Shown here one piece after another: positions 6,854-49,148 of a stretch of DNA of 64,000 nt. Position 1 is the first letter of the stretch; each line of letters starts with the position of its first letter. The translations under genes and the position numbers were made by a program. A model generated the notes under the pieces. It did not search any database. It worked only from the letters and a program-made list of their open reading frames with translations, and was not told where the DNA came from. Origin of the DNA: Patescibacteria group bacterium (GTDB lineage Bacteria; Patescibacteriota; Minisyncoccia; UBA6257; Colwellbacteraceae); NCBI GenBank assembly GCA_023380305.1, contig JAMCQZ010000008.1, positions 122,659 to 186,658 on the forward strand, in the 5' to 3' direction.

Positions 6854-6857
6854 TAAT

Positions 6858-6887: not shown

Positions 6888-6904
6888 ATACGTGATATCC
6901 GGAT

Positions 6905-6992: not shown

Positions 6993-7094
6993 TTTATTTT
7001 ACAAAGCCCTTTCCAGCCTATAAACTGAAATAGCCTTTGGGAGTTTAGGTAAGTGGTATACCGGCGGTCTCCAATTCCGCAGACAATCAAAAAT

Positions 7095-9578: not shown

Positions 9579-10173
9579 CGATAAGGCCGTAGTCTTTAGC
9601 TTCCTCGGCGGTCAGCCAGAAATCGCGGTCGCTGTCTTTCTCAATTTTGGCAAGCGATTGCCCGGTCATCTTCGCCAAAAGCTGGTTGACCCTCTGTTTG
9701 GTCTTCAAGATCTGCTTGGCGGTAATCTCGATGTCGGTCGCCTGGCCTTCGGCCGCGCCCATCACTTGGTGCAGAAGGATTTCCGAATTGGGTAAAGCGA
9801 ATCTTTTTCCTTTGGCTCCGGCCGCCAAAAGAAAAGCGGCGAAAGAAGCGGCCATGCCGACGCAATAGGTCTCGACGGTCGGCCTGACCAGCTGCATCGT
9901 ATCGTAGATGGCCATACCAGCCGTTACCGATCCGCCCGGGGAATTGATATAAAGCTTGATGTTCTTCTTGGGATCCTCATAATCGAGGAAAAGAAGTTGG
10001 GCGATGATTAAATTCGCCACCTGGTCGTTGATCGGACCGCCCAAGAAAACCACCCTGTCCCTCAAAAGGCGGGAATAGATGTCGTAGGCCCGCTCGCCAT
10101 AAGTGCTTTTTTCGATGACCGTCGGCACCAGATATTGGTATCCTTCGGCTTCGTTTTTAATGTCTTTATTCAT
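9553..10173 (-). CDS. clpP: ATP-dependent Clp protease proteolytic subunit
   Basis: ORF 9553..10224 trimmed to Met18 ([37 protein letters not shown]...), which begins 5 nt after the nusA stop. Contains the Ser-His-Asp ClpP catalytic-triad regions ([11 protein letters not shown]...HQ). Confidence 0.85.
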
Positions 10174-10177
10174 TTTG

Positions 10178-11437
10178 TTAATCTTCTTCTCCGACAAACT
10201 TCGGAATAATTTTGGTTTCTTCAATTTTATCTTGTTTCAAATCGCCTTCCAAGACCTCAGGCAAAGTATCTTCATCCTCGGTTTCGGCGACACCCCCTTC
10301 TTGGACTTCTTCCGGTCTCGATTCCGAACGGACGTCGATCTTCATGCCTGTCAGTTTGGCGGCCAATCTGACATTTTGCCCGCCCTTGCCGATAGCAAGA
10401 CTCAATTGATCCTCGGCTACCAGAACCTTGGCTTCGCGACGCAGTGATATTTCCACGCTCAAAACCTTAGCCGGCGAAAGGGAGGCTGCCACGAATTTCT
10501 CCGGCTCCTCTGACCATTCGATGATATCAATTTTCTCCTGACCTCCAAGCTCGTTCGTTACCGCCATTACCCTCGTGCCCCGCTGCCCGACGCAGGATCC
10601 GACCGGGTCCACGCCTTGAGCTTTGGAAGCAACCGCGATTTTGGTGCGACTTCCCGGCTCACGGGCAACGCCTTTTATTTCCACTGTCCCGTCGTTGATT
10701 TCCGGAACTTCCAGTTCGAAAAGCCGATTGATAAACCTCGGATGCGACCGAGAAAGGATAATGCCCGGCTGGCCGCGACGATCTTCCTGGATGCTCAATA
10801 CGTAAAAACGCATTCTTTCGTTCGTACGATAATGTTCTCCCGGAATGGATTCATTGCCAAACATAATTCCCAGAGCCTTGCCGATTTCAACGTAAACATT
10901 CCCCCGGTCAAAACGGTGGATGATGCCGGAGACAACTTTGCCCTCCTTGTCTTTAAATTCCTGAAGAAGCATATCTTTTTCGGCCTCGCGGAGTTTCTGT
11001 AAAATAACCTGCTTGGCGGCTTGAGCGGCAATACGGCCGAAATCGGTCTTCGGCTCAAGGCTGAATTCCAAATTCTCGCCGACCTGAACGTCGGGGTTAA
11101 CCTTTTTCGCTTCTTCGACGAAAATATGTCTTTCCGGATTGTAACGGGGAAGTTTCGGCTCCTCTTCTTCCTGCGGCTCAGCCGGCTGTTCTTCCACGGC
11201 TTCTTCCTCGGTAACGACCCGGACCGTATTTTCATCAACCACCTCTTTCACCTGCCAAAAAGCCAACTCTCCGGTTTTTTCATCAAGCTTGGCCTTAATC
11301 ACTTCTCCCCGCTTGCCATATTCCTTGCGATAAGCGGCGGCGATAGACTCTTCTATAACCGAGATAATCTTTTCCGGCTCGATGCCCTTTTCCTTGGCGA
11401 CCTGGCCGATGACGATCAGCAACTGTTTTAAATCCAT
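10178..11437 (-). CDS. nusA: transcription termination/antitermination factor NusA
   Basis: N-terminal domain, S1 ([21 protein letters not shown]) and tandem KH ([23 protein letters not shown]; [20 protein letters not shown]). Confidence 0.9.
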
Positions 11438-25233: not shown

Positions 25234-25308
25234 CGGCACGTAGCTCAGTGGTAGAGCAATGCTCTTATAAAGCATGGGTCGCAGGTCCGATCCCTGCCGT
25301 GCCGACCA
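25234..25308 (+). tRNA. tRNA-Ile (anticodon TAT) with encoded CCA
   Basis: CGGCACGTAGCTCAGTGGTAGAGCAATGCTCTTATAAAGCATGGGTCGCAGGTCCGATCCCTGCCGTGCCGACCA, with anticodon stem ATGCT/AGCAT and loop CTTATAA. UAU is a rare anticodon. Confidence 0.65.
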
Positions 25309-25310
25309 TA

Positions 25311-25340
25311 AATCCCGCTCCAACGCGGGATTTTTGTTTT
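25311..25340 (+). terminator. rho-independent terminator after tRNA-Ile
   Basis: AATCCCGC-TCCAAC-GCGGGATT followed by TTTGTTTT. Confidence 0.6.
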
Positions 25341-25357
25341 AAATAAAGGGTTCGGAT

Positions 25358-25373
25358 TGTTTCACGTGAAACA
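25358..25373. promoter_or_regulatory. isolated perfect parS site (TGTTTCACGTGAAACA)
   Basis: Exact 16-bp ParB/Spo0J parS consensus palindrome. Confidence 0.7.
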
Positions 25374-25681
25374 ATCTGTTTTCACAAAAATGTTTCACAC
25401 CCGATAAATCGGTTGGGGACGACGCCGGGACAAGCTCAAGCAGCCGGTAAATCCAAGGACCAGAAAGCATCCTCCAAAAGCGGATCCCAATCCGCCGACA
25501 CTAACAACGGAAGAGTTAAAACGACCGCTGAAACGGCATCATCGAGCCGGCTGGAACCCAAATCGTTTCGTCGCCTCTTACATCGATAGCCAAGCCAAGC
25601 GCCGAACGAAATTGTCGTTCTCGCCGCGAATGAAATAAAAATATTTTTCAAAACATCTGGTTTGTGATAGATATAAAAAGC

Positions 25682-25753
25682 GGACGGTTAGCTCAGGGGT
25701 AGAGCATCTCGTTTACACCGAGAGGGTCATAGGTTCAAATCCTATACCGTCCA
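25682..25753 (+). tRNA. tRNA-Val (anticodon TAC)
   Basis: GGACGGTTAGCTCAGGGGTAGAGCATCTCGTTTACACCGAGAGGGTCATAGGTTCAAATCCTATACCGTCCA, with anticodon loop TTTACAC. About 40 nt downstream sits a degenerate copy of its 3' end (GGGCTCGAATCCTGCGCCGTCCACCG). Confidence 0.85.
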
Positions 25754-27111: not shown

Positions 27112-27546
27112 ATGCGCTCTTTAAATAGAATAAAAGGGGATCAGGGCGAAGAAATCGCCTGTGGATATCTCGTGGACAATGGTTATCAGATACTCGACCA
27201 AAATTTTTGGCGACCCTTCGGCGAGATAGATATAATCACGAAATTTCGAGGTCGGACACTTGTTTTTATCGAGGTCAAAACTATCCACAAACCCGGCCAA
27301 ATGGCCATGTCACAACCTGGCCAAAATGCGGCCAAACATAACCAGGACAAGCTCAAATTTCAAAATTCTATACAGCCCGAAGATAATTTAACTGCCAAGA
27401 AAATGGCCAAGTTAAAAAAGACATGTGCGTGGTATGTTGGCCAGCATCCAGAGCTGGTTGATCTTGAAACTGGCTGGAGGATCGATTTAATCAGCTTGAC
27501 AATTACTGGGGAAAGTTGCCTTATCAGACATTACCAAAACATTTAA
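27112..27546 (+). CDS. YraN/UPF0102 family protein (predicted endonuclease fold) with an internal low-complexity insertion
   Basis: ORF 27034..27546 trimmed to Met27, because the upstream MFHVKH codons are just the last parS palindrome. GEEIACGYLVDNGYQILDQNFWRPFGEIDIIT...LVFIEVKT is the UPF0102 core. The insertion HKPGQMAMSQPGQNAAKHNQ... is encoded by a TGGCCA-rich repeat. Confidence 0.65.
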   Translation: MRSLNRIKGDQGEEIACGYLVDNGYQILDQNFWRPFGEIDIITKFRGRTLVFIEVKTIHKPGQMAMSQPGQNAAKHNQDKLKFQNSIQPEDNLTAKKMAKLKKTCAWYVGQHPELVDLETGWRIDLISLTITGESCLIRHYQNI

Positions 27547-27547
27547 A

Positions 27548-28843
27548 ATGATTTCACGAATCAAATTGTCCAGACTAGCTGACAAGCGACTCGCGCGCCC
27601 CTCCTCCATCCCGTCTCCAACCGCAGGTCTGGAACAGGGCTTCACTCTCGTCGAACTCCTCCTTGTCATAGGGATCCTTGGAATCATGGGAGGAATCACG
27701 GTTCTCGTGTTGAGGCCAGCTGAGCTCTTGAAACAAGCCCGGGATTCGGAAAGGCTAGCCGATATGAAGACGTTGAGCCAGCTTTTCACCTCGTATACCA
27801 CCCAGGTGTCGGAGCTCTACGGAAACCCGCAGAACATCTACCTTTCTTTGCCCGACACAAATCCGGATTGCTCTTCCTACAGCCTCCCAGATATTCCTTC
27901 CGGCTACAGCTATCATTGCGTTTCCACAGCAAACCTGAAGAAGGTGGACGGAACAGGCTGGATACCGGTGAACTTCAATTCCATTCCTGGAGGTTCTCCT
28001 ATCGCGGTCTTGCCTGTTGATCCGGCAAACAACGTTTCCTATTACTACAGTTTTGTGGAGGGAGGGTCGTATTCGTTGACCTCGTTTTTAGAATCCCAGA
28101 AACGGGCCCAAGAGAAACCAGATACCGAAGCCACTGGTTCGCTCAGGCAAGACGGTTTTGTCTACGCGATCGGAACAGATCTCGATCTTACGCCCGATAT
28201 AATTTGGGGGAGGAGCTGTAAAACCATCAAAACCCAATATCCGCAGAGTCCCGACGGGCTTTATTGGATAGACGCCGATGCCGAAGGCATTGAGCCGGAA
28301 ATCAGGGTATATTGCGACATGACGACCGACGGCGGAGGATGGACCCTTATCCAATCAACCGTTAAGGGCCAGGCAGCTGACAGCCGTTGGGCCGATACGT
28401 TCCCTAACCAACTCTATCAGACGATCGGCGAACCGTCGCTCATCAGCCCATACCGATTGGCCATGCGTTACTGGTATCTCATACCGAACACCAGCTGGAG
28501 CAAAATGGCGATTACGACAGCTGAGCAAAAGAAGACCTTCAATAAATCTCCGACTTTTTCCCTGACCGGCGTCAATGCCGGCCCGACCGGCTTTACTTAT
28601 ATCGGATCTGATCCGGTTGTCGTCCTTAACTCGCTAAGTTCTTACAACTGGAACACCTGCACTTATGGCGTGGCTTATTTCAACACCAGTTGCTGCGGCA
28701 CCTGCATCCTCTACAACAATCCGACCACCTACAACGCCTACAATCAGCCGATGATGTCGACGATCACCGCCATTGACGGGTCGGTTATCCAGAAATGGAA
28801 TAATTTCGCGCCTCTCGACCGACTCAATATCTTCTCGAGATAG
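27548..28843 (+). CDS. type IV pilin-like protein with C-terminal fibrinogen-related domain (FReD), long 30-aa leader
   Basis: Prepilin cleavage/methylation motif G|FTLVELLLVIGILGIMGG after a 30-residue leader. The C-terminal CKTIKTQYPQSPDGLYWIDADAEGIEPEIRVYCDMTTDGGGWTLIQ carries the FReD signature (C..I....SG.Y.I....VYCDM..DGGGWTVIQ), followed by a Cys-rich tail. Confidence 0.7.
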   Translation: MISRIKLSRLADKRLARPSSIPSPTAGLEQGFTLVELLLVIGILGIMGGITVLVLRPAELLKQARDSERLADMKTLSQLFTSYTTQVSELYGNPQNIYLSLPDTNPDCSSYSLPDIPSGYSYHCVSTANLKKVDGTGWIPVNFNSIPGGSPIAVLPVDPANNVSYYYSFVEGGSYSLTSFLESQKRAQEKPDTEATGSLRQDGFVYAIGTDLDLTPDIIWGRSCKTIKTQYPQSPDGLYWIDADAEGIEPEIRVYCDMTTDGGGWTLIQSTVKGQAADSRWADTFPNQLYQTIGEPSLISPYRLAMRYWYLIPNTSWSKMAITTAEQKKTFNKSPTFSLTGVNAGPTGFTYIGSDPVVVLNSLSSYNWNTCTYGVAYFNTSCCGTCILYNNPTTYNAYNQPMMSTITAIDGSVIQKWNNFAPLDRLNIFSR

Positions 28844-28911
28844 ACTAGTCAAGACTGATCCGCCGGCCTTTACAGGCGTTTTCTTCTTTGTTATTCTGAA
28901 TCTGCTTAAAT

Positions 28912-34729: not shown

Positions 34730-36061
34730 CTAAACTATTTTCCAAGCTATCGGGCCTGTCTGGCGCTCTACTTCCTCAAATGAGGTAACGCCTCTCAACA
34801 CCTTAATCAAACCGTCCGCCTGCGCGCCGACAAACCCCTTTTTGACAGCGGCTTTTTCAATATCGAACTCCGTCATATTCTCGGCGATGATGGAGGCGAA
34901 TTCTTTATCGAATCTCAATATTTCAAAAATGCCGATTCTCCCCTTATAACCCGTGTTGTTGCAGACGGGGCAGCCGACCGCTTTGTATAGACGAACCTCT
35001 TCTGCTTTCGGTTTGTCCACGATTCCGGGAAGGGCATCAAGAAAACTTTTTATCTTCTCTTTTGTCTCCTCGGACGGATCAACCGATTCCCGGCATTCTT
35101 CACAAAGTTTTCTCACCAGCCTTTGGGCGATGACCACGTTCAAGGCCGGTCCGATAACCGAGGGTTTGATGCCCAAATCAAGAAGCCTCGGCACGGCGCC
35201 GACGGCATTATTGGTGTGCAAGGTGGAAAAAACCAGGTGGCCGGTAAGGCTGCTGTGAAGCGCGATCTCCGCTGTTTGCTCGTCGCGGATTTCACCGACC
35301 AGGATAACGTCCGGGTCCTGCCTCAAGATCGATCTCAAGCCGTTTTCAAAAGTGTATCCGGCGCTTTCGTCAACCTGGGTCTGTTCAATGCCCGGGAGGT
35401 GATATTCAATCGGATCCTCGATGGTAATAATCTTGATATCCGGACTGGAAACAGACTTCAAAAAAGCATAAAGCGTAGTGGTTTTGCCCGATCCGGTCGG
35501 CCCGGTAACCAAGATCATGCCGTTCGGACGCTTCAGCTCCTCGGCCATCACAGCTTCATCATCTTTGCGCAGGCCAAGGTCGCCGATGTTTAAAGAGATG
35601 GCCGCCGGGTTCAGCAATCTTAAAACTGCGGTCTCGCCGAACTCCGAAGGGTTGACTGAAACTCTGATTTCGACGTCAATCGCTCCGGCGGGCTCCAAAA
35701 CGCGCGCCGTAAAGCGACCATCCTGGGCCACGTCGCGGACATTCAGTTTTAAATTCCCCAAAAGCTTGATCCGGTTTAAAATCAAAGCGTAAGAATCCCT
35801 GCCGATTTCGGCGATATCATTCAAAACGCCGTCGATGCGCGCCCGCAAGCGCGTTTTTCCTTCTTCGATCTCCAAATGAATGTCTGAAGCGTCGAGGCCG
35901 AGACTCGAAGCGACGATCGTCTCCAAAAATTCAGAGGCGCTTGCTTTTTTGTCGTTTAAATCTTGAATTTTCTTCCCAAAATCGGCTATGGTTGTAGGAA
36001 GAAACGCCGAGATTTCTATCCCATCTCGGAAATCTGCATTCTCAGCCATTGAAAACATCAT
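34730..36061 (-). CDS. pilB: type IV pilus assembly ATPase PilB / GspE family
   Basis: GspE N-domain, Walker A LVTGPTGSGKTTTL, Asp/His boxes, and the tetracysteine motif CEECRE...CPVCNNTGYKGRIGIFE. Confidence 0.85.
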   Translation of the reverse strand: MMFSMAENADFRDGIEISAFLPTTIADFGKKIQDLNDKKASASEFLETIVASSLGLDASDIHLEIEEGKTRLRARIDGVLNDIAEIGRDSYALILNRIKLLGNLKLNVRDVAQDGRFTARVLEPAGAIDVEIRVSVNPSEFGETAVLRLLNPAAISLNIGDLGLRKDDEAVMAEELKRPNGMILVTGPTGSGKTTTLYAFLKSVSSPDIKIITIEDPIEYHLPGIEQTQVDESAGYTFENGLRSILRQDPDVILVGEIRDEQTAEIALHSSLTGHLVFSTLHTNNAVGAVPRLLDLGIKPSVIGPALNVVIAQRLVRKLCEECRESVDPSEETKEKIKSFLDALPGIVDKPKAEEVRLYKAVGCPVCNNTGYKGRIGIFEILRFDKEFASIIAENMTEFDIEKAAVKKGFVGAQADGLIKVLRGVTSFEEVERQTGPIAWKIV

Positions 36062-37424: not shown

Positions 37425-39875
37425 ATGAAAAAAGATAACGTCTATAGAGACATTTTTATTTCGGTCGTCGCTCTCGGAATTTTCGCCGCGCTCGCCGGCC
37501 TCTTGGTCTTCTACCGCTTGAGCAAGACTCTTCCGCCAGTCGCTCAGCTCGATGGCGACATCAAGACCGAGTCAACCAAAATCTACGACCGCACCGGGCA
37601 GGTGATGCTCTACGAAATCTACGGTGAGGAGCGCCGCACTATTCTCTCGGCAGATCAAATCCCTGATGTTATGAGGCGAGCGGTGATCGCCGTCGAAGAT
37701 AAGGAATTCTACGGCCATCCGGCCTTCGATATCGCGGCCATGACTAGGGCCCTTATCGCCGACATTTTGAAACAAAGCGCTTCCCAGGGCGGCTCAACCA
37801 TCACTCAGCAGCTCGCCCGGAACGCCTTTTTAACGACCGAACGCTCGATAACGAGAAAGCTCAAGGAGATCATCCTCGCCTATCGCATCGAAAAACTTTA
37901 TTCCAAGGACGAAATCCTGAATCTCTATTTAAACCAGATTCCCTTCGGCCAGAACAGCTACGGCATTGAGGCTGCGAGCCAGACCTATTTCGCCAAACAC
38001 GCCTCCGATCTTAGTCTGTCCGAAGCGGCCCTGCTCGCGGCCGTGGCCAAAGGGCCAAGTTACTTTTCTCCCTGGGGGTCCCACCTCATCGAGCTCGAAG
38101 GCCGCAGGCAATACGTGCTCGAACAGATGGAAAAAGTCGGGTTCATCGACAAGCAGCAGTTGGAAGCCGCGAGAGCGGACAAGCCACGAGTCCTTGCCGA
38201 ACCCCAAAGGGCCAACTTTCATATCGCGCCCCACTTCGTCATTTACGTCCAGGATTATTTAAACCAGAAATACGGGGAGGACTTCGTGAGGAGATCGGGA
38301 ATGAAGGTGATCACCACCTTGGATGTCGACCTCCAGAAACTAGCGAATGAGAAAGTGGCCTCCGGCGGAAAAAGGAATATTGAGATGATCAACGGCCACA
38401 ACGTCGCCCTACTTGCCGAAGACGCGACCAACGGCCAGATACTCGCCATGGTCGGGTCAAGGGATTATTTCGCCGATTCCGAACCAGCCGGTTGCGTTGA
38501 AGGGGAAAACTGCCTCTTCGAGGGAAAATTCAACGTCGCCACTCAGGGATTGAGACAGCCCGGATCCGCTCTAAAACCCTTTGTCTATTCGTTAGCATTC
38601 AAATCAGGCCTGACTCCCGACACCGTCGTTTTCGATGTCCCGACGGAGTTCCGCGCCAACAGCTCTGATTGCCCGGCTGTCCCGAACCTCATCGATGAAA
38701 ACAAAGAATGCTATCATCCGAAAAATTACGACGGTCTTTTCAGGGGGCCGATCATGTTGAAAGACGCCCTGGCGCGGTCTTTAAACATTCCGGCGGTTAA
38801 AGTGCTCCATGTCGTTGGGCTCCAAAATGCCATCAACTGGCTGGAAAGATTCGGCATCACTACCTTGAATGATCCCGACCGCATCGGGCTTTCTCTCACC
38901 CTGGGAGGAGGGGAAATCAGACTGACCGAACTCACGAATGCCTACGCTACCCTGGCAAACGACGGTGTTTTCAATCCTCAAACCGCGATCTTGAGCATCG
39001 CCGATTCCAAGGGGAACGTTTTGGAACAATTCGAACCGAAACCAGAAAGAGCCGTCGACGCCCAATATGCGAGGCTCGTAAACGACATCCTCTCCGATCC
39101 AAAGCTCAGGGAGCCGCTCTTCGGATCAAACCTTTACCTAACCCAGGTCCCGGGCAAACAGATCGCCCTTAAGACAGGAACCGCCGACAACTACGTCGAC
39201 GCTTGGGCCTTCGGCTATTCGCCGCGGCTCGTGGTCGGTCTCTGGGCCGGCAACAACAACCGCCACCCCTTGGGAAAAGCCGGATCAAGTATTCTGGCCG
39301 CAATTCCAACCTGGCACGACTTCGCTATCGAAGCCTTTAAAAACGAACCCGGCCTTACCTTTATCAAGCCAGATCCCATCTATTCCGATTCGCCGATACT
39401 TTTGGGAGCGATCGACCGAAGCAACGTTCACGACCTCCTTTATTTCTTAAACCGGATTTCCGATCCGCAATACCAGAATTGGGAAGAAGACGTCAGAGCC
39501 TGGGTGACCCAAAACGGCATGCCTCTTTATTGGGGCCAGGCCACTTATACCTTTAAAAGCGACGGCCGAGTGGAATTAAACGGTGAAAAAAATATCACCA
39601 TAAGCCTGTCTTTCCCGAAAAACGGCGACTTTATTAATTCCTCGTCCGAATTGAAAGCGTCTGTCTCGGCCGAATCCGGCGTAAAAAGCATCGAACTCCT
39701 ATTAAACAGTCAGCCGATAGACGTTTTCCAGGCCGGTTCAAAAAACATCGTCGATTATCGCTTTGTTTTCGGGACGACTCCATTAAACCCCCAGAATTCG
39801 TTAACCTTACGGGCGACAAATGCTTTAGGGAACTCCACCGAACAAACAATAATCGTCTTTAAGGAGACCGATTAA
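37425..39875 (+). CDS. class A penicillin-binding protein (glycosyltransferase plus transpeptidase) with C-terminal extension
   Basis: GT51 motifs RAVIAVEDKEFYGHP and GGSTITQQLAR. Transpeptidase SALKPF (SxxK) and KTGTA. Confidence 0.85.
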   Translation: MKKDNVYRDIFISVVALGIFAALAGLLVFYRLSKTLPPVAQLDGDIKTESTKIYDRTGQVMLYEIYGEERRTILSADQIPDVMRRAVIAVEDKEFYGHPAFDIAAMTRALIADILKQSASQGGSTITQQLARNAFLTTERSITRKLKEIILAYRIEKLYSKDEILNLYLNQIPFGQNSYGIEAASQTYFAKHASDLSLSEAALLAAVAKGPSYFSPWGSHLIELEGRRQYVLEQMEKVGFIDKQQLEAARADKPRVLAEPQRANFHIAPHFVIYVQDYLNQKYGEDFVRRSGMKVITTLDVDLQKLANEKVASGGKRNIEMINGHNVALLAEDATNGQILAMVGSRDYFADSEPAGCVEGENCLFEGKFNVATQGLRQPGSALKPFVYSLAFKSGLTPDTVVFDVPTEFRANSSDCPAVPNLIDENKECYHPKNYDGLFRGPIMLKDALARSLNIPAVKVLHVVGLQNAINWLERFGITTLNDPDRIGLSLTLGGGEIRLTELTNAYATLANDGVFNPQTAILSIADSKGNVLEQFEPKPERAVDAQYARLVNDILSDPKLREPLFGSNLYLTQVPGKQIALKTGTADNYVDAWAFGYSPRLVVGLWAGNNNRHPLGKAGSSILAAIPTWHDFAIEAFKNEPGLTFIKPDPIYSDSPILLGAIDRSNVHDLLYFLNRISDPQYQNWEEDVRAWVTQNGMPLYWGQATYTFKSDGRVELNGEKNITISLSFPKNGDFINSSSELKASVSAESGVKSIELLLNSQPIDVFQAGSKNIVDYRFVFGTTPLNPQNSLTLRATNALGNSTEQTIIVFKETD

Positions 39876-40981
39876 TCTTTGATCGGCATTAAAATATAGA
39901 AATAAGAAGTGTCGTTCGGCGCTTTGATGATCGCTGGCCGGCTGTCTCCCTGGAGGCCGAATAAAACCGTATCCGTGTAAATGTTTTTCAATCCGTCCAG
40001 GAGATATTTCCAATTAAACGAAGCTTTGACTGGGTCGCCGTTTATTTTCGCGGAAATCAAATATTTGTTTTCCCCGAGTCCGCTGTCGGCCGAATAGACC
40101 TCGACGATCTTTTTGTCGTCTCCCACTTTAACGATCACTTCGCCACTTCTCGCGGTAAACGACCCGGCTAATTTCATAGCGTTCACCAACTCCTGTTTAT
40201 CGATGACTATTTCGGTTTCGAGAATCTTCGGAATGATCGGCCCGTAATCCGGAAACTGCCCGTCGATCAGCCGGGTGATTATCTCCAGGCTTTCTGTCTT
40301 GAAAAGCGCCTGGGAGTCGTCGATAAAAATATGGACATCATCCTCGTCATCCAAAACCCTCACCAACTCCTGGATGGTTTTTAAGGGAATAATGGTTTTT
40401 TTAACCTTTAAGGAATTGCTTTTAAATTGCGTTTCCGGGATAGTTTTTTCTGCTAGCCTAAAACTGTCGGTCGCCACCAATTTGAAAACATTGGTTTCGA
40501 AATTAAAAAGAATGCCGCTTATTTCCGGACGCAAATCGGAAATTTGACAAGCGTTGATTATTTTATTGATTCCTTCCTTTAAGACCGCAGCGGGGATATT
40601 AAAACTTCCTGATTCCGGAGTGATTTTGGGGATAATCGGAAAATCCGAAGGATTCATCCCTTGGATAGTCGCTTCGTAATTATCCGTTTTAAGAAAAAGG
40701 TTGTTCTTTTTCGCTTCAAGGTCAATGCGCTCGCTTTGAAGATTGTTGATCAGACTATTTAAGAGATTAAAAGGGACCGTTACTTCTCCTTGCTCGGTGA
40801 TTTTTCCAGGAACGATTTTTGTGATAGCCGCTTCAAGATTAGTGGAAGCGATGGTGATTTTCGACTGATCCGCTCTAATAAAGATATTTTTTAAGATCGG
40901 CAGATTGAGATTATCTTCGATCGTTCTTGAGACGGCATCCAAGGCATTTTTTAGATTATTACGTAATACGATTATTTTCAT
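39872..40981 (-). CDS. dnaN: DNA polymerase III beta sliding clamp
   Basis: Three-domain beta-clamp layout (MKIIVLRNNLKNALDAVSRTIE...), positioned immediately downstream of dnaA. Confidence 0.85.
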   Translation of the reverse strand: MKIIVLRNNLKNALDAVSRTIEDNLNLPILKNIFIRADQSKITIASTNLEAAITKIVPGKITEQGEVTVPFNLLNSLINNLQSERIDLEAKKNNLFLKTDNYEATIQGMNPSDFPIIPKITPESGSFNIPAAVLKEGINKIINACQISDLRPEISGILFNFETNVFKLVATDSFRLAEKTIPETQFKSNSLKVKKTIIPLKTIQELVRVLDDEDDVHIFIDDSQALFKTESLEIITRLIDGQFPDYGPIIPKILETEIVIDKQELVNAMKLAGSFTARSGEVIVKVGDDKKIVEVYSADSGLGENKYLISAKINGDPVKASFNWKYLLDGLKNIYTDTVLFGLQGDSRPAIIKAPNDTSYFYILMPIKD

Positions 40982-41130
40982 ATATAAATTTGTAGTAGTT
41001 ATCCGTGTGGATTGGTGGATAAGTTGTTTTTCGACGCTTTTTAAATAAGTTTTTTGATATTTATTTTTGTGGATAAAAAGTTTTTATCTGCGTTCGTCTG
41101 TTTTTATCCATAATTTATTCCCGGAATAAT
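40982..41130. promoter_or_regulatory. putative oriC segment: DnaA-box cluster in AT-rich dnaA-dnaN intergenic region
   Basis: A perfect box TGTGGATAA at ~41068-41076, GTGGATAAG at ~41015-41023 and TTATCCATA at ~41104-41112, plus weaker boxes near 40999-41013 and T/A-rich spacers. Confidence 0.6.
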
Positions 41131-42489
41131 TCACAGGTTTTGGGGTTTATTGATTAAATCCTTGATTAGAGAAATTTTTTGATTCAACCCTTGGTCTTTG
41201 GAAAGAGAAAGGTTGATTTTTTCATAGGCGTAGATGGCTGTCGTGTGATCGCGCTTCCCCATTTTTTCGGCAATATAGGGATAAGACATATTGAGAAGTT
41301 CCCGCAGAAGATAAATAGCCACTTGTCTCGGCTCGACGATCTCTTTTTTCCGGCCCCGACCGATCAGGTCGGTTGGGGAGATTTCGTAGAAGGTGGAGAC
41401 GGCTTTAAGCACGTGTGTTGGGCTAATATTGACCGCAGACTGGGTTAAAATATCATTGATGATATTTTCCACTTGTTCGATAGAAAAACCCTCCTGGTGC
41501 TGATTTCTGTAGAAAATAAGCTTGTTTAAAATACCTTCGAGCTCCCGGATATTCCTTTGGATTTTTTTGGCGACGATGCTGATAACGGCGTCGTCGAAAG
41601 CCTCGCTTTTCTCTTGAAGCTTCACTTTAATAATGGCCATCCTTGTTTCGTAGTCCGGGAAGCTGATATCGGCGATCATTCCACCTTCAAACCTCGAACG
41701 AAGCCTTTCTTCGAGTATCGGAATGGCGCGCGGAGGCCGATCCGAAGAAATGATGATCTGTTTATTGGCCTCGTAAAGGGCGTTGAAGGTGTGGAAGAAT
41801 TCTTCTTCAGTTTTCTCCTTTCCGCCGATGAACTGGATATCGTCAATTATTAAGACGTCGACGTTCCGATAGGCTTCTTTGATATCCTCGACGCGTTTGT
41901 TTCTTATCGCCCAGATAACGTCGTTCGTGAACTTTTCCGAGGAGACATATTTGACGTTGACGTTTTTATAGTTGTTTTTTATTTCGTTTCCGATAGCTTG
42001 GATCAAGTGGGTTTTACCGAGGCCGGTGCCGCCGTAAACAAAGAGAGGATTGTATTTTTTGCCGATCTCTTCGATGACAGCGAGCGAAGCGGCGTAAGCC
42101 AGTTCGTTCGAGGAACCGACGACAAACGATTTCAAATTGTATCTTGGATTGAGTCCGGTCTCGGGATCGATCTTAAGTTCGGAGAAAACCAATTGCTTGC
42201 TTTGAGGAGCGGCCGGAGCCTGTTCGGCGGGCTTCTTGAAAACTACGCTATCGACGGCATAACTAATATTTCTGATCGATCCGTCCTTGCTTCTTAAGAC
42301 GCCGAGGATTAATTTATGGTATTTTGTTTCCACCCATTCTTTGGCGAAGTGGTTTGGGAGGATAACAGTCGCCTTTCCGTTTTCGTAATCGTTCATGCGG
42401 CTGTTTTTTAACCAAGTAAGGAAGTTGGGCTTTGAAATTTGTATTTCCAGTTCTGACAAAACGTTTTTCCAAAGCTCTTCCTTATTCAT
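41131..42489 (-). CDS. dnaA: chromosomal replication initiator DnaA
   Basis: AAA+ Walker A GGTGLGKTHLIQAIGNE, box VII, and a C-terminal DNA-binding domain. Confidence 0.9.
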   Translation of the reverse strand: MNKEELWKNVLSELEIQISKPNFLTWLKNSRMNDYENGKATVILPNHFAKEWVETKYHKLILGVLRSKDGSIRNISYAVDSVVFKKPAEQAPAAPQSKQLVFSELKIDPETGLNPRYNLKSFVVGSSNELAYAASLAVIEEIGKKYNPLFVYGGTGLGKTHLIQAIGNEIKNNYKNVNVKYVSSEKFTNDVIWAIRNKRVEDIKEAYRNVDVLIIDDIQFIGGKEKTEEEFFHTFNALYEANKQIIISSDRPPRAIPILEERLRSRFEGGMIADISFPDYETRMAIIKVKLQEKSEAFDDAVISIVAKKIQRNIRELEGILNKLIFYRNQHQEGFSIEQVENIINDILTQSAVNISPTHVLKAVSTFYEISPTDLIGRGRKKEIVEPRQVAIYLLRELLNMSYPYIAEKMGKRDHTTAIYAYEKINLSLSKDQGLNQKISLIKDLINKPQNL

Positions 42490-44190: not shown

Positions 44191-44217
44191 AAAAACGGCC
44201 GAAAGGCCGTTTTTTTA
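44191..44217. terminator. bidirectional terminator (AAAAAACGGCC-GAAA-GGCCGTTTTTTT)
   Basis: Perfect hairpin flanked by A7/T7, between the convergent jag and M23-peptidase genes. Confidence 0.6.
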
Positions 44218-45006
44218 ACCGGCGGGGTTAAAAGGATTGGCGAGGGGGTTGACCCTCGTGCCGTTTAGGGCGATCTCGAAATGCACGTGCGGGCCGGTTG
44301 AACGACCGGTGCTTCCGGCCAAGGCGATTTCTTCGCCTTTGGTAACCGTGTCTCCGACTCTCACAAGCAGCTCGGAACAGTGGCCATAGAGCGTGGTATA
44401 GCCATTCGCGTGTTGAATTTGAATATAATTGCCGTATCCGTCCGGATCAAAGCTGGCGACAATGACTTTGCCCGTCTCCGCTGCATAGACCGGAGCCCCC
44501 ATATTAACCGCGATATCAATCCCGTGATGTACGGAGGCGCCTCGCGGACCGAAAGGAGACGAGATCCAGCCGCTTGAAAGGGTCGGCCAGCTGAAACCGT
44601 TGATCAGTTGTTGGCTTAATCCCCCGACGTTGCTCGGGCCCGAAGACCTGCCTTCGGCAGGAAGATTTATTTTCTGGAGCGGAGGAAGATTGATTTTAAA
44701 CTCCAAAAGAGAAGGATTAATGACGGAAATGATGATGTAGCTCGTGGCGAGGATCCCCAGGCCCCAGGCTGCCTCGGTGATCATCTCTTTGGAACGTTTT
44801 TGTTTGGCCACGTCGTTTGCATGGACCGTGTATTGAAATCCGGCCCAGAGAATAATGAGGAAGGCGATGAATCCACCAAGTTCCCAAGCAAAGACGAACA
44901 GATTTTCGAGCCCTCCGGGGATGAGGCTGTTTAGCGCTTCGAGAATGCCGCTCGAAGACGTTGTCCCGTTGCTCGCCAAGGCGACACCCGTGAAAAAATT
45001 GGACAT
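44215..45006 (-). CDS. M23 (LytM) peptidase with N-terminal pilin-like 2-TM domain (PrgK/VirB1-like function for a T4SS)
   Basis: HHGIDIA...GYGNYIQIQH...HVHFEI are the M23 zinc ligands. N-terminal residues 1-110 resemble the small VirB2-like paralogs (two TM helices with a charged loop). Confidence 0.75.
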   Translation of the reverse strand: MSNFFTGVALASNGTTSSSGILEALNSLIPGGLENLFVFAWELGGFIAFLIILWAGFQYTVHANDVAKQKRSKEMITEAAWGLGILATSYIIISVINPSLLEFKINLPPLQKINLPAEGRSSGPSNVGGLSQQLINGFSWPTLSSGWISSPFGPRGASVHHGIDIAVNMGAPVYAAETGKVIVASFDPDGYGNYIQIQHANGYTTLYGHCSELLVRVGDTVTKGEEIALAGSTGRSTGPHVHFEIALNGTRVNPLANPFNPAG

Positions 45007-45049
45007 ATTATTTCAATTATACTCGAAAACCTGGGAAAGACGACAGCTT

Positions 45050-45415
45050 TTAAAACGGAGTTTTCCTGGCCGTTCCGGCAACCTTGACGATCGTTTGCGC
45101 TTCCGGCCGGCTGATAAGGAAAAAAGTAACGAGCAGAGTGATGGTCTTGATGGGTAAAATATTCAAAATTGGGAAGAGCTCGAAAACGCCGCCGGCGAGA
45201 GACCAAACGCCTTTGATGCCTTTGACAAGCAAATAGCCGTTGATGACAATGCCGGCGATAAGGGCGACGAAAGAATTTAGAAACAGGAAGATGAGCCCGA
45301 CCACCGGCACCAAGCCGAAAAGTCCGTTCAAGAGTTCGAAAAGATCGGCTCCGATCGCCACCAAAAAAAGAATGATCCCCTCGGGCAGCGATATTTTGGG
45401 AGACGCTTTATCCAT
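45050..45415 (-). CDS. small polytopic membrane protein (VirB3-like?) in T4SS-like operon
   Basis: Three predicted TM helices. The start overlaps the stop of the upstream VirB4-like gene (translational coupling). Confidence 0.45.
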   Translation of the reverse strand: MDKASPKISLPEGIILFLVAIGADLFELLNGLFGLVPVVGLIFLFLNSFVALIAGIVINGYLLVKGIKGVWSLAGGVFELFPILNILPIKTITLLVTFFLISRPEAQTIVKVAGTARKTPF

Positions 45416-47760
45416 TAGACGTTTTCCTGCTCCTCGAGACCTTCTTCTCCGGCGAGCGCCGCCTCGGCCTGTTCGGCTTCGACGATCTCTTCCGGATTGG
45501 TAGTGATGATCTGGTGCTCGAAGGGAGAGGCGACGACTTCGATTGCCGCATGGGTCAGCCCCGCGAGAAACAGGCCCTGGCCGATGTCTACCTCAAGAAG
45601 ATAATTCTTTTCCGATTCGGAAAGTCCGAAGGCCTTGCCCGTTGATTCGATGGACGAAGGGGACTGTTTCAAAAGCAGTTGGAGGGATGAGTTGGTGATG
45701 ATCGGCCGGCCGTAGGGAGAGCTTAAAAAGTCCTCCACGTCCTGGGTGATGGTCGAGATGCCGAGATAGTATTTTCTCGCTCTTTTGACGAGGCCGAAAA
45801 GGAATGAGGCCGAATCCGGATATTTCATCATCCACCAGGCCTCATCGATGATCATCAGCCTTTTTTTGAGGTCGGCTCTCACTAGGTTCCAGACGAAATT
45901 CAAAATGATGAACATGGCGATCGGACGGAGTTCGTCTTCGAGGTCGCGGATGGAAAAAACAATGAGCCGGTTATTGGTGTCGATATTCGAAGCCTGGTTC
46001 AAGAACCCGGCATAGCTTCCTTTGGTGAAACGATAGAGCCGGTCGGCCAGGGCACGGCCGCCTTCGATATTTCGGAGGATTTCCTCCAGGTCTTCGAGGA
46101 GCGGCGGCGTGGCGCCGGAGAAGTCCTTGTTCGGCGTGATGTCTTTCGAGGCGTAGGCTTCGGTGATGGCCTGATCAATAACGGCTTCTTCCTCCGGCTT
46201 GATCTCTCCGAACATCAGCTTTAAAAGGCTTGTCAGGTTGACGATGTGTGATTTCAGGACTTCTGGCGGACTCTCGTCTTCCGGAATTTGCGGAACGTCA
46301 AAAGGGTTGATGTGGTTCGGCGAATCGAGCGAAATCTTGATAAAGGATCCGCCCGCGGAATTCGCCAGGTTTTCATATTCGTTTTCCGGATCGATGATGA
46401 TCACCTCGTCGCCGATCATGAGAGATCGGAGCACTTCGAGCTTGGTGGCATAGGATTTTCCGGATCCGGCTTTGGCGAAGACGACGGTGTTGGCGTTTTC
46501 CAAAGAAAACCGGTCGAAGATGATGGGAGTGTTGTTGTGCCGGTTGATGCCGTAGAGTATGCCCTCGTCCGAGGACAGGGTGGCGGAGACGAACGGAAAG
46601 AAAGAAGAAAGCGTGTTGGTGTTGAAGGGATTCGCGATTTCCAGACGGTCCTCGGCGATCGGTAGGGTGGAGTAGAAGCCCTGGAGGTTTTCAAAAAGCA
46701 AAGGCTTGGCGTAGATGAGCTTGGCCTCGAGTCCGCTCGAAATGCGGTCGATGATGCGGTTGAGATCCGAAGAGTCTTTGCCGAAAATGGTCAGATAAAC
46801 GCTTACCGAAAAAAGTTTTTCCTGAGATTGCTGAAGGTTGTCTCGCAAGGCCTCGATATCCTGCAGGGCGGTCTCGAGCATCGGATCCCGGACCAGGCCT
46901 TTCTCTTCGATTTCCATAAGTTGGACCTGGACCTGGGCTGATCGGTTGCGGAGCTGTCTCAAGACGTCTCCTGTCTCGGTGGGCGAAATATGGATGGAAA
47001 TGTCGGCGAGCTCGGCGAGATTGATGAGGCCAGAAAGCCAGCCGCTCGAGAGATACCGCGGATAACCGGAAAGAAAAAGAGATTTGGCTGTCAGCTCGTC
47101 CACCTTTAGGGAGTCCGGAGCGATCTCGAATCGCCGTGGCCCGATGAATTTCTGGGCCTCGGCCGGATTCAGTTTTTCTCCCGGGTTGAAGGCGCTGTAA
47201 AAAAGCTCTCGGAGCTCCGCTTCTTCGAGGACAATGCCGCGGAGCCCGATGCGGTGGAGGCTGTTTATGATCTGGCTGGCCTTGAGATCAAGTTTTTCTT
47301 TGGCTTCGCGGACGGCCGTCGGCTCTGTCTCGGCTGGAGGCTGTTGCCGGCCGATGGTCGGCAGGCTGATGATCTCGTGGGGGATGGTGATGAAAAAACC
47401 TTTTTTCATCACGGCGTTTTCGGCGACGAAATTTTCGATGAACTCCCGATAGATGGCGATTTGGGAACGCATCATCTCGTTCTGCTCCTGGTTTTCTTTT
47501 TCTTTCAGCCGGTTCAAATAGTCGTCGATAAAAAACTTTCTCGAAGAGACGCTGATTTCGATCGGATAGTCGAGGGAGTTTAGGAGATCGGCGAAGGCCG
47601 AAAGGATCATCTGCTGTTCTTCCTCGGATTTAAGATCGAAGTTGACGCCGTTCACCATGATGACCTTGCGGAGTCCGCCGTCTTTCAAAAAAACGGAATC
47701 GCCTTCGATTTTTTTGACCGGCAGGATGTTCTCCGAGGAGATGTTTTGTTTCTGAGCCAT
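45415..47760 (-). CDS. VirB4/TrbE/PrgJ-family type IV secretion ATPase
   Basis: Walker A FAKAGSGKSYATK, Walker B MIIDEAWWMM, plus the N-terminal VirB4 domain. 781 aa. Confidence 0.8.
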   Translation of the reverse strand: MAQKQNISSENILPVKKIEGDSVFLKDGGLRKVIMVNGVNFDLKSEEEQQMILSAFADLLNSLDYPIEISVSSRKFFIDDYLNRLKEKENQEQNEMMRSQIAIYREFIENFVAENAVMKKGFFITIPHEIISLPTIGRQQPPAETEPTAVREAKEKLDLKASQIINSLHRIGLRGIVLEEAELRELFYSAFNPGEKLNPAEAQKFIGPRRFEIAPDSLKVDELTAKSLFLSGYPRYLSSGWLSGLINLAELADISIHISPTETGDVLRQLRNRSAQVQVQLMEIEEKGLVRDPMLETALQDIEALRDNLQQSQEKLFSVSVYLTIFGKDSSDLNRIIDRISSGLEAKLIYAKPLLFENLQGFYSTLPIAEDRLEIANPFNTNTLSSFFPFVSATLSSDEGILYGINRHNNTPIIFDRFSLENANTVVFAKAGSGKSYATKLEVLRSLMIGDEVIIIDPENEYENLANSAGGSFIKISLDSPNHINPFDVPQIPEDESPPEVLKSHIVNLTSLLKLMFGEIKPEEEAVIDQAITEAYASKDITPNKDFSGATPPLLEDLEEILRNIEGGRALADRLYRFTKGSYAGFLNQASNIDTNNRLIVFSIRDLEDELRPIAMFIILNFVWNLVRADLKKRLMIIDEAWWMMKYPDSASFLFGLVKRARKYYLGISTITQDVEDFLSSPYGRPIITNSSLQLLLKQSPSSIESTGKAFGLSESEKNYLLEVDIGQGLFLAGLTHAAIEVVASPFEHQIITTNPEEIVEAEQAEAALAGEEGLEEQENV

Positions 47761-47763
47761 GGG

Positions 47764-48264
47764 TTAGCGGTAATCTATGCGGCGGACAGCTTCTTTTTCG
47801 CCGGTTATTTTTTGGATAATGGCGTATTTCTGGCGCCACTCGTTTTGGTTTCTGATAAAATCGGCTTCGAAAGCCATTTCCCGTTTCGGCACCGGAGCGA
47901 CGCTCGTGGTGATGCGCTCAAAAAGGCTGGTGAGGGAAGGCTTCGCCGTTACTCCGGCGGGGGCGACGGCCACCAGTTTTTCTTCGGCGTAAGCCGGCCA
48001 GACGTAAAGTTTTGACCGCGTAAGATAATAAAAAGAGGCTCTGACCACTATCGGGAGAGGCCGGGTGTTTATTTTAACAAAAGCCAGGCCGGCGCCGGCT
48101 CCCATAAGGCCGGCGGCGACGATGATCCAAACCCAATGCGCCAGAGGAAAATACAGGGCGTAGGCGATGGCCGCCGGAATGGCGAGGTAGATGAACTGGG
48201 TGAGCGTTAAAGAACCGATGATGCGGTTCTCGGTGCTGATAAACTGCGGAACTAAAAATTGCAT
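47764..48264 (-). CDS. PrgI-like small membrane protein (VirB3 analogue of monoderm T4SS)
   Basis: 166 aa, two TM helices (FIYLAIPAAIAYALYF; VWIIVAAGLMGAGAGLAFV), immediately upstream of VirB4 as in Gram-positive conjugation operons. Confidence 0.45.
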   Translation of the reverse strand: MQFLVPQFISTENRIIGSLTLTQFIYLAIPAAIAYALYFPLAHWVWIIVAAGLMGAGAGLAFVKINTRPLPIVVRASFYYLTRSKLYVWPAYAEEKLVAVAPAGVTAKPSLTSLFERITTSVAPVPKREMAFEADFIRNQNEWRQKYAIIQKITGEKEAVRRIDYR

Positions 48265-48308
48265 CGCTTTGTTAAAGTCTTTCCGAACAGAAAAAGACTC
48301 TATTAATT

Positions 48309-49145: not shown

Positions 49146-49148
49146 AAT

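Follow-up and report, generated by a model that had tools for sequence, protein, structure and literature searches.

A modular type IV prepilin with a divergent fibrinogen-related head, a proposed pilus-tip adhesin, in a Patescibacteria genome

Results

Locus and gene product

The window analysed here, a 64 kb stretch of a Patescibacteria genome, contains a gene for a modular type IV prepilin, which by direct reading starts with ATG and ends with TAG. The identical NCBI protein (P0001, MCL4406332.1 / MCL5262178.1) comes from a Patescibacteria MAG and is named 'prepilin-type N-terminal cleavage/methylation domain-containing protein'. Thirteen full-length orthologs with identities of 54-76% were found, and JGI labels orthologs 'pseudopilin PulG'. 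The protein consists of a prepilin cleavage site (G31/F32-T-L-V-E36), a pilin module (~150 aa), a linker and, at the C-terminus, a head of ~210 aa (Table 1). Since all four parts are present in a real open reading frame, the fusion of a pilin with a fibrinogen-type head, which an earlier note on this DNA had put forward, is confirmed at the sequence level, and the prepilin, NF040941 and Fibrinogen_C profiles all match well beyond chance.

Table 1. Coordinates in the window of the prepilin gene, its parts and the assembly ATPase.
Feature	Coordinates	Strand	Evidence
Whole gene, modular type IV prepilin	27548..28843	+	431 aa plus stop codon; ORF list, sequence
Leader peptide, codons 1-31, MISRIKLSRLADKRLARPSSIPSPTAGLEQG	27548..27640	+	direct reading
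Tract ~97% DNA-identical to paralog P0015	27627..28072	+	DNA alignment A1; protein sequences; locus L001
Mature N-terminus F32, Glu at +5, hydrophobic alpha1-N helix FTLVELLLVIGILGIMGGITVLVL	27641..27712	+	TIGR02532, N_methyl, PDB pilin N-termini
Pilin module, residues 32 to about 183, conserved Cys108 and Cys124	27641..28096	+	common to >100 CPR pilins; alignment A2
Linker, residues about 184-221 (~38)	28097..28210	+	variable, gapped in alignment A2; pLDDT <50 in both models
Head, divergent fibrinogen-related domain, residues 222-431	28211..28840	+	
YCDMTTDGGGW signature, Y255-W265	28310..28342	+	NF040941 E 1.4e-21; alignment A2
Cys cluster C371...C382-C383-x-x-C386 (WNTC...AYFNTSCCGTC)	28658..28705	+	alignment A7, family profile, hhalign A3-A5 and A5-A4
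PilB/GspE-type assembly ATPase, 443 aa	34730..36061	-	PF00437 E 5.4e-116; GspE/PilB/PilT model scores

Housekeeping genes surround this orphan gene, with yraN upstream and rpsT downstream, and no other prepilin motif occurs in the 64 kb. No PilD, PilC or PilM was seen among the window ORFs scanned, and apart from one ATPase the window holds no other pilins or pilus genes. An Rfam scan of the window returned just tRNAs, none of them near the gene. The ATPase, which had been noted earlier as a PilB, holds up as a T2SSE protein of the PilB/GspE type; its gene is isolated between ruvB and ruvC, ~6 kb from the pilin gene. The scores are 435 bits for GspE and 422 bits for PilB, as compared to 164 bits for PilT; none reaches its equivalog cutoff, and the protein has no counterpart of the first ~100-170 residues of the models. 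We regard it as a candidate pilus motor, although its gene and that of the pilin do not share an operon.

Prepilin signal and pilin module

The canonical prepilin peptidase site reported previously is indeed present. The class III signal comprises Gly31, Phe at +1, Glu at +5 and a hydrophobic stretch, in the context AGLEQG31/F32TLVE36, which continues as LLLVIGILGIMGGITVLVL. The TIGR02532 model (prepilin GFxxxE), which has a cutoff of 16.3 bits, matches with 21.1 bits. The proposed check with Pfam N_methyl (PF07963) gave a match at residues 29-50, although its 20.6 bits are slightly below the gathering score of 21.2. Models of GspG, GspH and PilA match partially at the N-terminus, and the N-termini of pilins in the PDB match residues 29-85.

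The module that follows recurs in more than 100 CPR pilins under other heads, namely LamG, FGE-sulfatase-like, PF09603, NHL and GH10, and the columns of Cys108 and Cys124 are both conserved in alignment A2. The AlphaFold model of the full-length protein, built with a 29-sequence alignment, was unusable (pLDDT 47.9), and no fold claim is drawn from it; the fold of the pilin module is therefore based on sequence alone.

Leader peptide and start codon

The basic leader lacks a hydrophobic stretch. It had been described as unusually long, with 30 residues. It is long and probably real, but it has 31 residues and is not exceptional in the family, where annotated leaders of at least 18 aa occur in 30 of 104 relatives (about 29%). 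Type IVb pilins such as TcpA, CofA and BfpA normally have long leaders, of about 13-30 residues. A long basic leader ahead of the conserved Gly is thus common to them and to the protein studied here, whereas the latter has Phe at +1 and an N-terminal motif that is type IVa/pseudopilin-like.

Another option considered was that the long leader is an annotation artefact, the real start being a non-canonical codon further in, such as CTG (codon 28) or ATC (codon 21); this would leave a leader of normal length, 4-11 residues. The closest orthologs do have short leaders set by upstream stops or ATGs (MSKKS/F in L006, MDFRNKQLG/F in L005, 9 aa in P0002), the annotated starts of this family demonstrably cannot be relied on, those of P0006 and P0010 lying inside the helix, and a weak promoter-like match at 27521-27549 overlaps the ATG. 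The genome offers no Shine-Dalgarno signal to guide the choice of start, the motif being essentially absent across 36 window genes, which makes this test uninformative. However, the sole alternative canonical start is the TTG at 27566-27568 (codon 7), corresponding to a leader of 25 aa, and from there to the cleavage site the sequence contains no ATG, GTG or TTG. The ATG of the gene lies 1 nt past the stop of the upstream gene, as is typical of coupled translation, and the leader is basic and hydrophilic, as genuine long leaders of the type IVb kind are. Moreover, its last 13 codons resemble in frame the leader of the paralog P0015 (SSIPSPTAGLEQG vs SFFPSQNRSLEQG), with two Ser differences that are both synonymous, and P0029 and P0033 carry similar leader segments, which argues that this stretch is translated. 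The CTG at codon 28 was considered specifically, as the high DNA identity with P0015 begins 2 nt before it, but the in-frame alignment of the 13 preceding codons makes it unlikely. We find the artefact explanation doubtful on the whole. A leader of 25-31 aa is probably real, and an internal start that gives a short leader, which the earlier note had named as a way in which its reading could fail, is unlikely.

The C-terminal head

The head carries the motif of fibrinogen-related domains (FReDs), LYWIDADAEGIEPEIRVYCDMTTDGGGWTLIQ, at residues 238-269, with four Cys residues downstream of it (371, 382, 383 and 386). The fibrinogen C-terminal motif and the Cys-rich part after it, both predicted earlier, are thus borne out. 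The NCBIfam model NF040941, 'fibrinogen-like YCDxxxxGGGW domain', matches with 76 bits against a cutoff of 30, and Pfam COLFI with E 1.3e-8. Pfam Fibrinogen_C (PF00147), one of the suggested checks, scores above the gathering score (E 8.8e-7, 29.4 bits vs 22), but on its own covers just profile positions 3-55 of 221. Its match is near-complete (positions 11-208 of 221) for P0027, P0030 and P0040, which have the same pilin module. The family profile A7 matches solved FReDs over ~175 residues, with E 4e-18 for tenascin-R and E 4e-15 for tachylectin-5A; the match runs from the first Cys to the WWYxxC motif and stops there.

In alignment A2, C224, C256 and GGGWTL are invariant, and Cys256 would pair with Cys224 in the predicted subdomain-A disulfide of FReDs. 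In alignment A7, C371 (C166 there) is invariant and C177, C178 and C181 nearly so, and the family profile aligns 'stC..PWFYgsCC' with 'NCA..AWWYKNC' of tenascin-R. From these alignments the Cys cluster can be assigned as the counterpart of the P-subdomain 'NCA...WWYxxC' disulfide, with an extra CxxC typical of the bacterial family. Both conserved Cys pairs of FReDs are accordingly present by alignment, C224/C256 and C371 with C382/383, in a predicted pairing. The head modelled alone has a pLDDT of 82 and is a FReD, with the three subdomains A, B and P of the fold. The model is least confident around residues 355-385 (pLDDT 54-63), near the expected ligand site.

It is important to point out that the Asp cluster of the Ca2+ site, D-x-D-x-D before the NCA Cys, is not found here. 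The segment reads V-L-N-S-L-S-S-Y-N-W, as compared to S-T-T-D-S-G in the bacterial relatives and D-R-D-N-D in true FReD heads. Because these aspartates are not conserved, a lectin specificity of the head is unproven. The earlier description as a ficolin/FIBCD-like acetyl-binding lectin is not supported, since N-S-L-S-S replaces the D-x-D-x-D and the model is weakest there. Some FReDs bind proteins instead of glycans.

The head is 14-19% identical to animal FReD proteins (ficolins, FIBCD1, tachylectin-5A, tenascin, angiopoietins and fibrinogen beta/gamma), from which it differs by the non-conserved Ca2+-site Asp and the extra CxxC. The collagen or coiled-coil oligomerisation stalk of the animal proteins is also absent, with a pilin in its place. 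We also considered an intelectin identity. The intelectin-specific fold is not found, and the remainder of the head aligns with the B and P subdomains of FReDs; structurally, the head is less similar to intelectins/X-type lectins (XEEL, human intelectin-1) than to canonical FReDs.

Paralogs and head swapping

A new observation is a paralog in the same genome, in which a ~97% identical pilin module is joined to another head. This protein, P0015, is encoded at locus L001 on contig JAMCWW010000007.1 of GCA_023480935.1, an assembly that, by NCBI accession series, also holds P0001 on another contig. The tract of ~97% DNA identity extends from 2 nt before codon 28 through codon 175, with divergent flanks on both sides, a pattern that reflects gene conversion or a recent head swap. 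The P0015 head is unrelated to the one studied here and matched no family, the best match being a non-significant one to CBM_4_9 (E 0.16). P0032, with a different GGGWT-type head, is a probable third paralog. As judged from the sequences, the gene is a member of a pilin family of Patescibacteria that pairs a single carrier module with exchangeable heads.

Distribution of the head

Fibrinogen-related domains had been described as rare in bacteria, which turned out not to be the case. There is a dedicated NCBI model for the bacterial 'YCDxxxxGGGW' domains, 3945 proteins match the family profile, and an exhaustive search of 1.84 billion cluster representatives gave 10439 that match. Full-length matches to the present head, in contrast, were obtained for only two of the 1.84 billion representatives, one bacterial and one archaeal pilin cluster; this head subtype was found solely on pilins of these two domains. 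One ortholog, in the P0007 cluster, bears the NCBI name 'fibrinogen-like YCDxxxxGGGW domain-containing protein'.

The NF040941 proteins of bacteria, which are abundant in Myxococcota (e.g. Haliangium ochraceum), are 25-34% identical over 75-95% of the head. They share the PWFYxxCC​xTC and HPM motifs with it, and hhalign gives a probability of 99.5% over the full length. They differ in that, instead of pilins, most are proteins with MopE-like Cys repeats (PF11617) or giants built of many modules, and the pilin head subtype forms a separate tight group.

The occurrence of the same head subtype on archaeal type IV pilins, as assigned by sequence, is new. The archaeal proteins have class III signal peptides and heads 55-67% identical to the one studied here, and their contigs encode archaeal-type PheRS, RNase P component 3 and FlaI/FlaJ-like pilus genes. 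It seems rather probable that Patescibacteria (CPR) and small archaea, probably DPANN, have exchanged a dedicated adhesin head derived from FReDs, which in each domain was placed on the type IV pilin scaffold of that domain. If so, pilus-tip heads would form a mobile cross-domain attachment 'toolkit' of ultra-small episymbionts, possibly for a common ligand. For the present gene, composition gives no sign of a recent horizontal acquisition, since neither the GC (0.51-0.52) nor the GC3 (0.60-0.65) of module and head departs from the background of the window.

Discussion

Proposed function

We propose, with a probability of about 0.7, that the gene encodes a modular type IV pilin that acts as a tip adhesin. 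In this mechanism, the prepilin peptidase would cut the basic leader of 25-31 residues after Gly31, and the hydrophobic N-terminal helix together with the pilin module would allow insertion into a type IV pilus. The linker would then project the divergent FReD head, stabilised by disulfides. So bulky a head does not fit into the body of the filament, and the protein would therefore most likely be a minor pilin, of low abundance, located at the tip. There, the head would act as an adhesin and bind to the surface of a host or partner cell, the ligand probably being a glycan or some other component of the cell envelope. A pilus-displayed adhesin, as suggested by the earlier note, is the most likely reading, and by analogy a role in host attachment is reasonable.

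An improbable alternative is that the protein is the major pilin, with a FReD head on every subunit and hence a thick lectin-coated pilus. Large major pilins do exist, M. xanthus PilA being an example (PMC11046646), and a linker of about 38 residues could let the heads splay outwards. However, the mature protein of ~400 aa is twice the size of the largest characterised major pilin, and modelling of the bimodular PilB gave steric clashes in the filament body (PMC8179133). The window contains no smaller pilin, but this search spanned 64 kb of genome. Furthermore, one genome has at least two, probably three, paralogs with related modules and different heads, which fits alternative tip adhesins and not one structural subunit.

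Slightly less improbable, though still unlikely, is a scenario with no extended pilus, in which the pilin-like N-terminus is a membrane anchor or a short pseudopilus stalk, of the kind known from type II secretion or competence systems, that presents the lectin-like head on the cell surface, or in which the protein serves DNA uptake. The N-terminus also matches the GspG/GspH pseudopilins and ComGC weakly, JGI labels the orthologs as pseudopilins, the GspE model gives the nearby ATPase a slightly higher score than the PilB model does, and the gene lies outside any pilus operon. However, each of these N-terminal matches is short and of a kind that class III signals give in general. No role in DNA binding or secretion is known for a globular FReD head, and the closest experimental parallels in Patescibacteria are pilus-borne (PMC11623550).

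Pili are the leading candidates for the means by which ultra-small episymbionts, both bacterial and archaeal, recognise their hosts and hold on to them. The tip-adhesin reading makes the gene a concrete adhesin candidate, with a ~210-aa head, soluble and with predicted disulfides, that lends itself to expression and to screening on glycan or cell-wall arrays. Since the architecture had already been catalogued, the value lies in the family-level pattern and not in the single gene: a constant pilin carrier with swapped heads, both within one genome and across the divide between bacteria and archaea. This pattern suggests how host range could evolve fast in these lineages.

Comparison with known modular pilins

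The design of a pilin with a FReD is not new. 'Modular pilins' have been described, and Dataset S1 of Raynaud et al. 2021 (PNAS, PMC8179133) lists the architecture IPR012902-IPR002181, a pilin motif plus a fibrinogen C-terminal domain, for 8 proteins and for 2 more with an extra domain, with CPR examples among the architectures shown. Our literature search, which included CPR/DPANN, found no paper devoted to FReD-headed pilins. The present protein qualifies as a modular pilin: the head folds alone in the model, the pilin module occurs with other heads, and the architecture is listed. It has in common with those pilins a class III pilin module, a short linker and a grafted binding module that is not pilus-specific. 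The experiments there concerned vWA (PilB) and in part the lectin (PilC), whereas the fibrinogen-type entries are a table line; as compared to those entries, the head studied here is a divergent subtype, of which single-sequence Pfam sees only 55 residues. PilB and PilC of S. sanguinis mediate adhesion and were modelled at the tip (PMC8179133).

Ultra-small cells have been seen attached to hosts via pili-like appendages (PMC7906910). In the Saccharibacteria TM7x, host binding has been linked to the lectin-like minor pilins PilX1 and PilX2 (Grossman et al. 2024, PMC11623550); PilX2 is needed for efficient binding, and the authors propose glycan recognition. Like the present protein, these come from Patescibacteria, and they are minor pilins of type IV pili whose large accessory domains, at the C-terminus, resemble lectins. 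Their heads are, however, a beta-jelly roll and a 7-bladed propeller, as opposed to the FReD here, and they have no predicted PilD signal and lie in pilus loci, whereas the protein studied here has a G/FTLxE site and is encoded by an orphan gene.

Results and Discussion

The reading frame proposed in the earlier note at window 27548-28843 (+) is present exactly as claimed, running from ATG to TAG and encoding 431 residues. The identical NCBI protein (MCL4406332.1 / MCL5262178.1, from a Patescibacteria MAG) is named 'prepilin-type N-terminal cleavage/methylation domain-containing protein'. It carries a class III (prepilin) signal, M1...LEQG31|F32TLVE36LLLVIGILGIMGG, with a glutamate at +5 followed by a hydrophobic helix. 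By direct reading, its cysteines are at positions 108 and 124 in the pilin module and at 224, 256, 371, 382, 383 and 386, while residues 238-269 are LYWIDADAEGIEPEIRVYCDMTTDGGGWTLIQ. The protein is matched by NF040941 (NCBIfam, 'fibrinogen-like YCDxxxxGGGW domain', E 1.4e-21), Pfam COLFI (E 1.3e-8), Pfam Fibrinogen_C (PF00147, E 8.8e-7) and TIGR02532 (score exceeding the model cutoff), all far beyond chance, and Pfam N_methyl is slightly under its gathering score.

The N-terminal ~175 mature residues constitute a module common to more than 100 proteins of Patescibacteria (CPR), and Cys108 and Cys124 are both conserved in the alignment. Its assignment as a pilin is supported by sequence, the full-length model being too poor to judge the fold.

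We now turn to the C-terminal head (residues 222-431). With a single sequence, the Fibrinogen_C match stops after the initial ~55 head residues (profile positions 3-55 of 221), and intelectins are the best PDB matches. Three CPR relatives that share the pilin module of the gene product (P0027, P0030 and P0040) have a near-complete Fibrinogen_C domain, at profile positions 11-208 of 221. In profile-profile comparisons, the head family aligns over its full length with a large bacterial family (P0143/P0146 type, probability 99.5%), and this family aligns with true fibrinogen-related domain (FReD) heads through the 'NCA...WWYxxC' region (98.9%). The head-family profile of 128 sequences covers ~175 residues of solved FReDs, with E-values of 4e-18 for tenascin-R, 4e-15 for tachylectin-5A and about 1e-12 for FIBCD1 and the ficolins, and its 'stC..PWFYgsCC' is placed opposite 'NCA..AWWYKNC' of the FReD. 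The AlphaFold model calculated from the 128-sequence alignment has a pLDDT of 82.1 and a pTM of 0.83, and its top 50 Foldseek matches (E ~1e-8 to 1e-7, TM 0.52-0.62) are FReDs only, namely ficolins, MFAP4, fibrinogen, angiopoietins, tenascin and FIBCD1. Since the Fibrinogen_C-bearing relatives, the profile-profile steps and the structure prediction agree, a FReD fold of the head is supported. The core of the earlier reading, a pilin with a FReD that is likely a pilus-displayed adhesin, is also supported.

The ficolin-like ligand specificity, on the other hand, could not be upheld. The FReD Ca2+ site D-x-D-x-D is replaced by N-S-L-S-S in the head, and the model is weakest around residues 355-385 (pLDDT 54-63). 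Functional equivalence to acetyl-binding lectins is accordingly not supported by the alignment and the model.

Metagenomes and Patescibacteria MAGs contain 13 full-length orthologs with 54-76% identity; one of the clusters bears the label Candidatus Colwellbacteria and the NCBI name 'fibrinogen-like YCDxxxxGGGW domain-containing protein'. Many relatives carry other heads on the same pilin module, among them LamG, FGE-sulfatase-like, PF09603, NHL and GH10. Judged by the NCBI accession series, the assembly of the paralog P0015 also contains the window protein. P0015 shares with the gene a DNA tract of ~97% identity (window 27627-28072, codon 28 to codon 175), while its leader has diverged and its head is unrelated, giving no family match beyond a non-significant CBM_4_9 hint. 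The shared tract points to gene conversion or to a head swap that happened recently. P0032 (MCL4405963.1), with a related pilin module, a different GGGWT-type head (YCDMDYSGGGW) and a 6-residue leader, is probably a third modular pilin of the same genome, because it belongs to the same accession series. Its gene is also an orphan among housekeeping genes. Heads are thus exchanged on a conserved pilin carrier, and gene conversion or recent duplication keeps the carrier uniform.

The head subtype is also present on archaeal pilins (loci L002, L003 and L004), with 57-66% identity to the head of the gene and 55-67% over all bacterial-archaeal pairs. These carriers are considered archaeal because they have archaeal class III signals (e.g. 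MKKRG|LSTIVVTLLIILLSLVAVG), two of their N-termini resemble the Sulfolobus pilin UpsA (E 2e-5 to 3e-6), and the genes around L002 and L003 agree. The L002 carrier, on a 327-kb contig, adjoins RNase P component 3 and archaeal-type PheRS beta (TIGR00471, 490 bits, above cutoff), and at L003 two FReD-headed pilins lie in tandem, with FlaI-like and FlaJ-like genes about 2.4 kb downstream. Neighbour joining places the bacterial heads in a single clade and the archaeal ones in another clade plus one basal branch; the mean identity is 60% between domains vs 68-69% within each. When 1.84 billion cluster representatives were searched exhaustively with the profile, 10439 proteins matched, mostly via a ~50-residue GGGWT segment; only two representatives gave full-length matches, a pilin cluster of bacteria and one of archaea. 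On this basis the head subtype appears to be confined to pilins of bacteria and archaea, which would imply that a pilus adhesin head has passed between the two domains.

Different arrangements were also observed. Among DPANN archaea, a Nanoarchaeota MAG encodes a fusion of archaeal pilin, LamG and GGGWT with a different head subtype, which also speaks for the archaeal origin of the carriers above, and a Woesearchaeota MAG encodes a 1210-aa protein in which two GGGWT modules alternate with LamG-like regions. The giant proteins P0284-P0290 (2400-4900 aa) have 7-15 separate matches each to the GGGWT segment, which means that it is also a repeated module.

The design is shared with the 'modular pilins', of which an InterPro survey found more than 1200 proteins in 264 architectures, CPR examples included (Raynaud et al. 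2021). For one of them, the vWA-containing PilB of S. sanguinis, adhesin function is proven and modelling places the protein at the tip of the pilus, and Dataset S1 of that work lists 8 proteins combining the pilin motif with a fibrinogen C-terminal domain (IPR012902-IPR002181). In the Patescibacteria TM7x, lectin-like minor pilins are implicated in host binding (PMC11623550). By sequence and analogy, the gene product is likely a pilus-displayed adhesin. The architecture is already catalogued, and the gene adds another example. Contrary to the earlier note, FReD-like domains are not rare in bacteria: NCBIfam has a dedicated model, the family profile gave 3945 matches, and confirmed loci in GTDB species representatives number at least 552. 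What goes beyond the published literature found is the almost identical carrier module bearing different heads inside one genome, and the restriction of the head subtype to bacterial and archaeal pilins.

It is important to consider the length of the leader, which is 31 residues by the annotated ATG, 1 nt past the stop of the upstream yraN-like gene. A normal short leader from an internal start finds no canonical codon: after the TTG at codon 7, neither ATG, GTG nor TTG occurs before the cleavage site, so that canonical initiation leaves only leaders of 25 or 31 residues. The 13 codons 5' of the cleavage site align in frame with the leader of the paralog P0015 (SSIPSPTAGLEQG vs SFFPSQNRSLEQG) with synonymous Ser differences, and similar peptides are present in the relatives P0029 and P0033, which argues that this stretch is translated. 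However, in the closest orthologs stop codons or ATGs limit the leader to a short 5-9 residues, start calls in this pilin family are unreliable and err in both directions, and Shine-Dalgarno signals are missing from the genome. Altogether, we consider the long leader to be real with a probability of roughly 0.7. Contrary to the earlier suggestion, it is not exceptional, either in this family or among type IV pilins generally. Annotated leaders have a median of 10 residues in the 104 relatives whose cleavage site is recognisable, and reach 18 or more in 30 of them; type IVb pilin leaders are also long.

For the ortholog P0006 the database places the start inside the hydrophobic helix, and the DNA reveals the true N-terminus further upstream, as MDFRNKQLG|FTLTELM. 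A recurrent motif of long annotated leaders is F-[TLF]-P, in many cases within 'GFTPxQ/E' (8 of 30 vs 0.84 expected from shuffles; P0053, P0069, P0086, P0106, P0108, P0110, P0015 and P0029). The motif resembles a degenerate GFTLxE prepilin site and may be a vestigial duplicated N-terminus or else a conserved leader element. Essentially no Shine-Dalgarno-like motif precedes the confident genes (36 gene starts in the window, e.g. 27523-27547), where A/T-rich sequence is found instead. A weak, consensus-level sigma-70-like match (TTATCA-17-TAAAAT) overlaps the annotated ATG; if functional, the start would be the TTG at codon 7. Past the stop codon, a short GC stem (CGCC...GGCG) and a T-rich run, also consensus-level only, are possibly a weak terminator.

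In the window, the gene is an orphan with the sole prepilin motif of the 64 kb and no compositional deviation from the background. A UPF0102/YraN gene lies upstream, and rpsT, holA, mutM, a histidine kinase, a 5'-3' exonuclease and ruvB follow downstream. The assembly ATPase called pilB in the earlier note is indeed of PilB/GspE type and stands alone between ruvB and ruvC; PilC, PilD and PilM were absent among the window ORFs scanned. The window also holds a type IV secretion-like cluster, adjoining dnaN and dnaA genes, which probably mark the replication origin region, and tRNA genes.

Coordinates of features in the window and at other loci
Feature	Sequence	Coordinates	Strand	Remark
PilB/GspE-type ATPase	window	34730-36061	-	scores far better than PilT; lacks N-terminal part of models
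Sigma-70-like match	window	27521-27549	+
GC stem and T-rich run	window	28861-28890	+
Type IV secretion-like cluster	window	44215-51782	-	includes two further ORFs (278 and 877 aa)
M23 peptidase with T4SS_pilin domain	window	44215-45006	-
TraG/VirB4-like P-loop ATPase	window	45415-47760	-
PrgI-like protein	window	47764-48264	-
dnaN and dnaA	window	39872-42489	-
tRNA cluster	window	4998-7165		eight genes
tRNA genes	window	25234-25753		two genes
Paralog P0015	L001, JAMCWW010000007.1 (GCA_023480935.1)	10001-11233
P0032	L083 (Logan SRR10252151)	2493-3671		just downstream of def and fmt
Archaeal pilin, same head subtype	L002	10001-11089
Archaeal pilins, same head subtype	L003	10001-12459
Archaeal pilin, same head subtype	L004	10001-11218
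True N-terminus region of P0006	L005 (CAZRNY010000002.1)	5407-5460		start-call error; same issue in P0010
Nanoarchaeota fusion	L062	3091-5079
Woesearchaeota protein	L036	5692-9324
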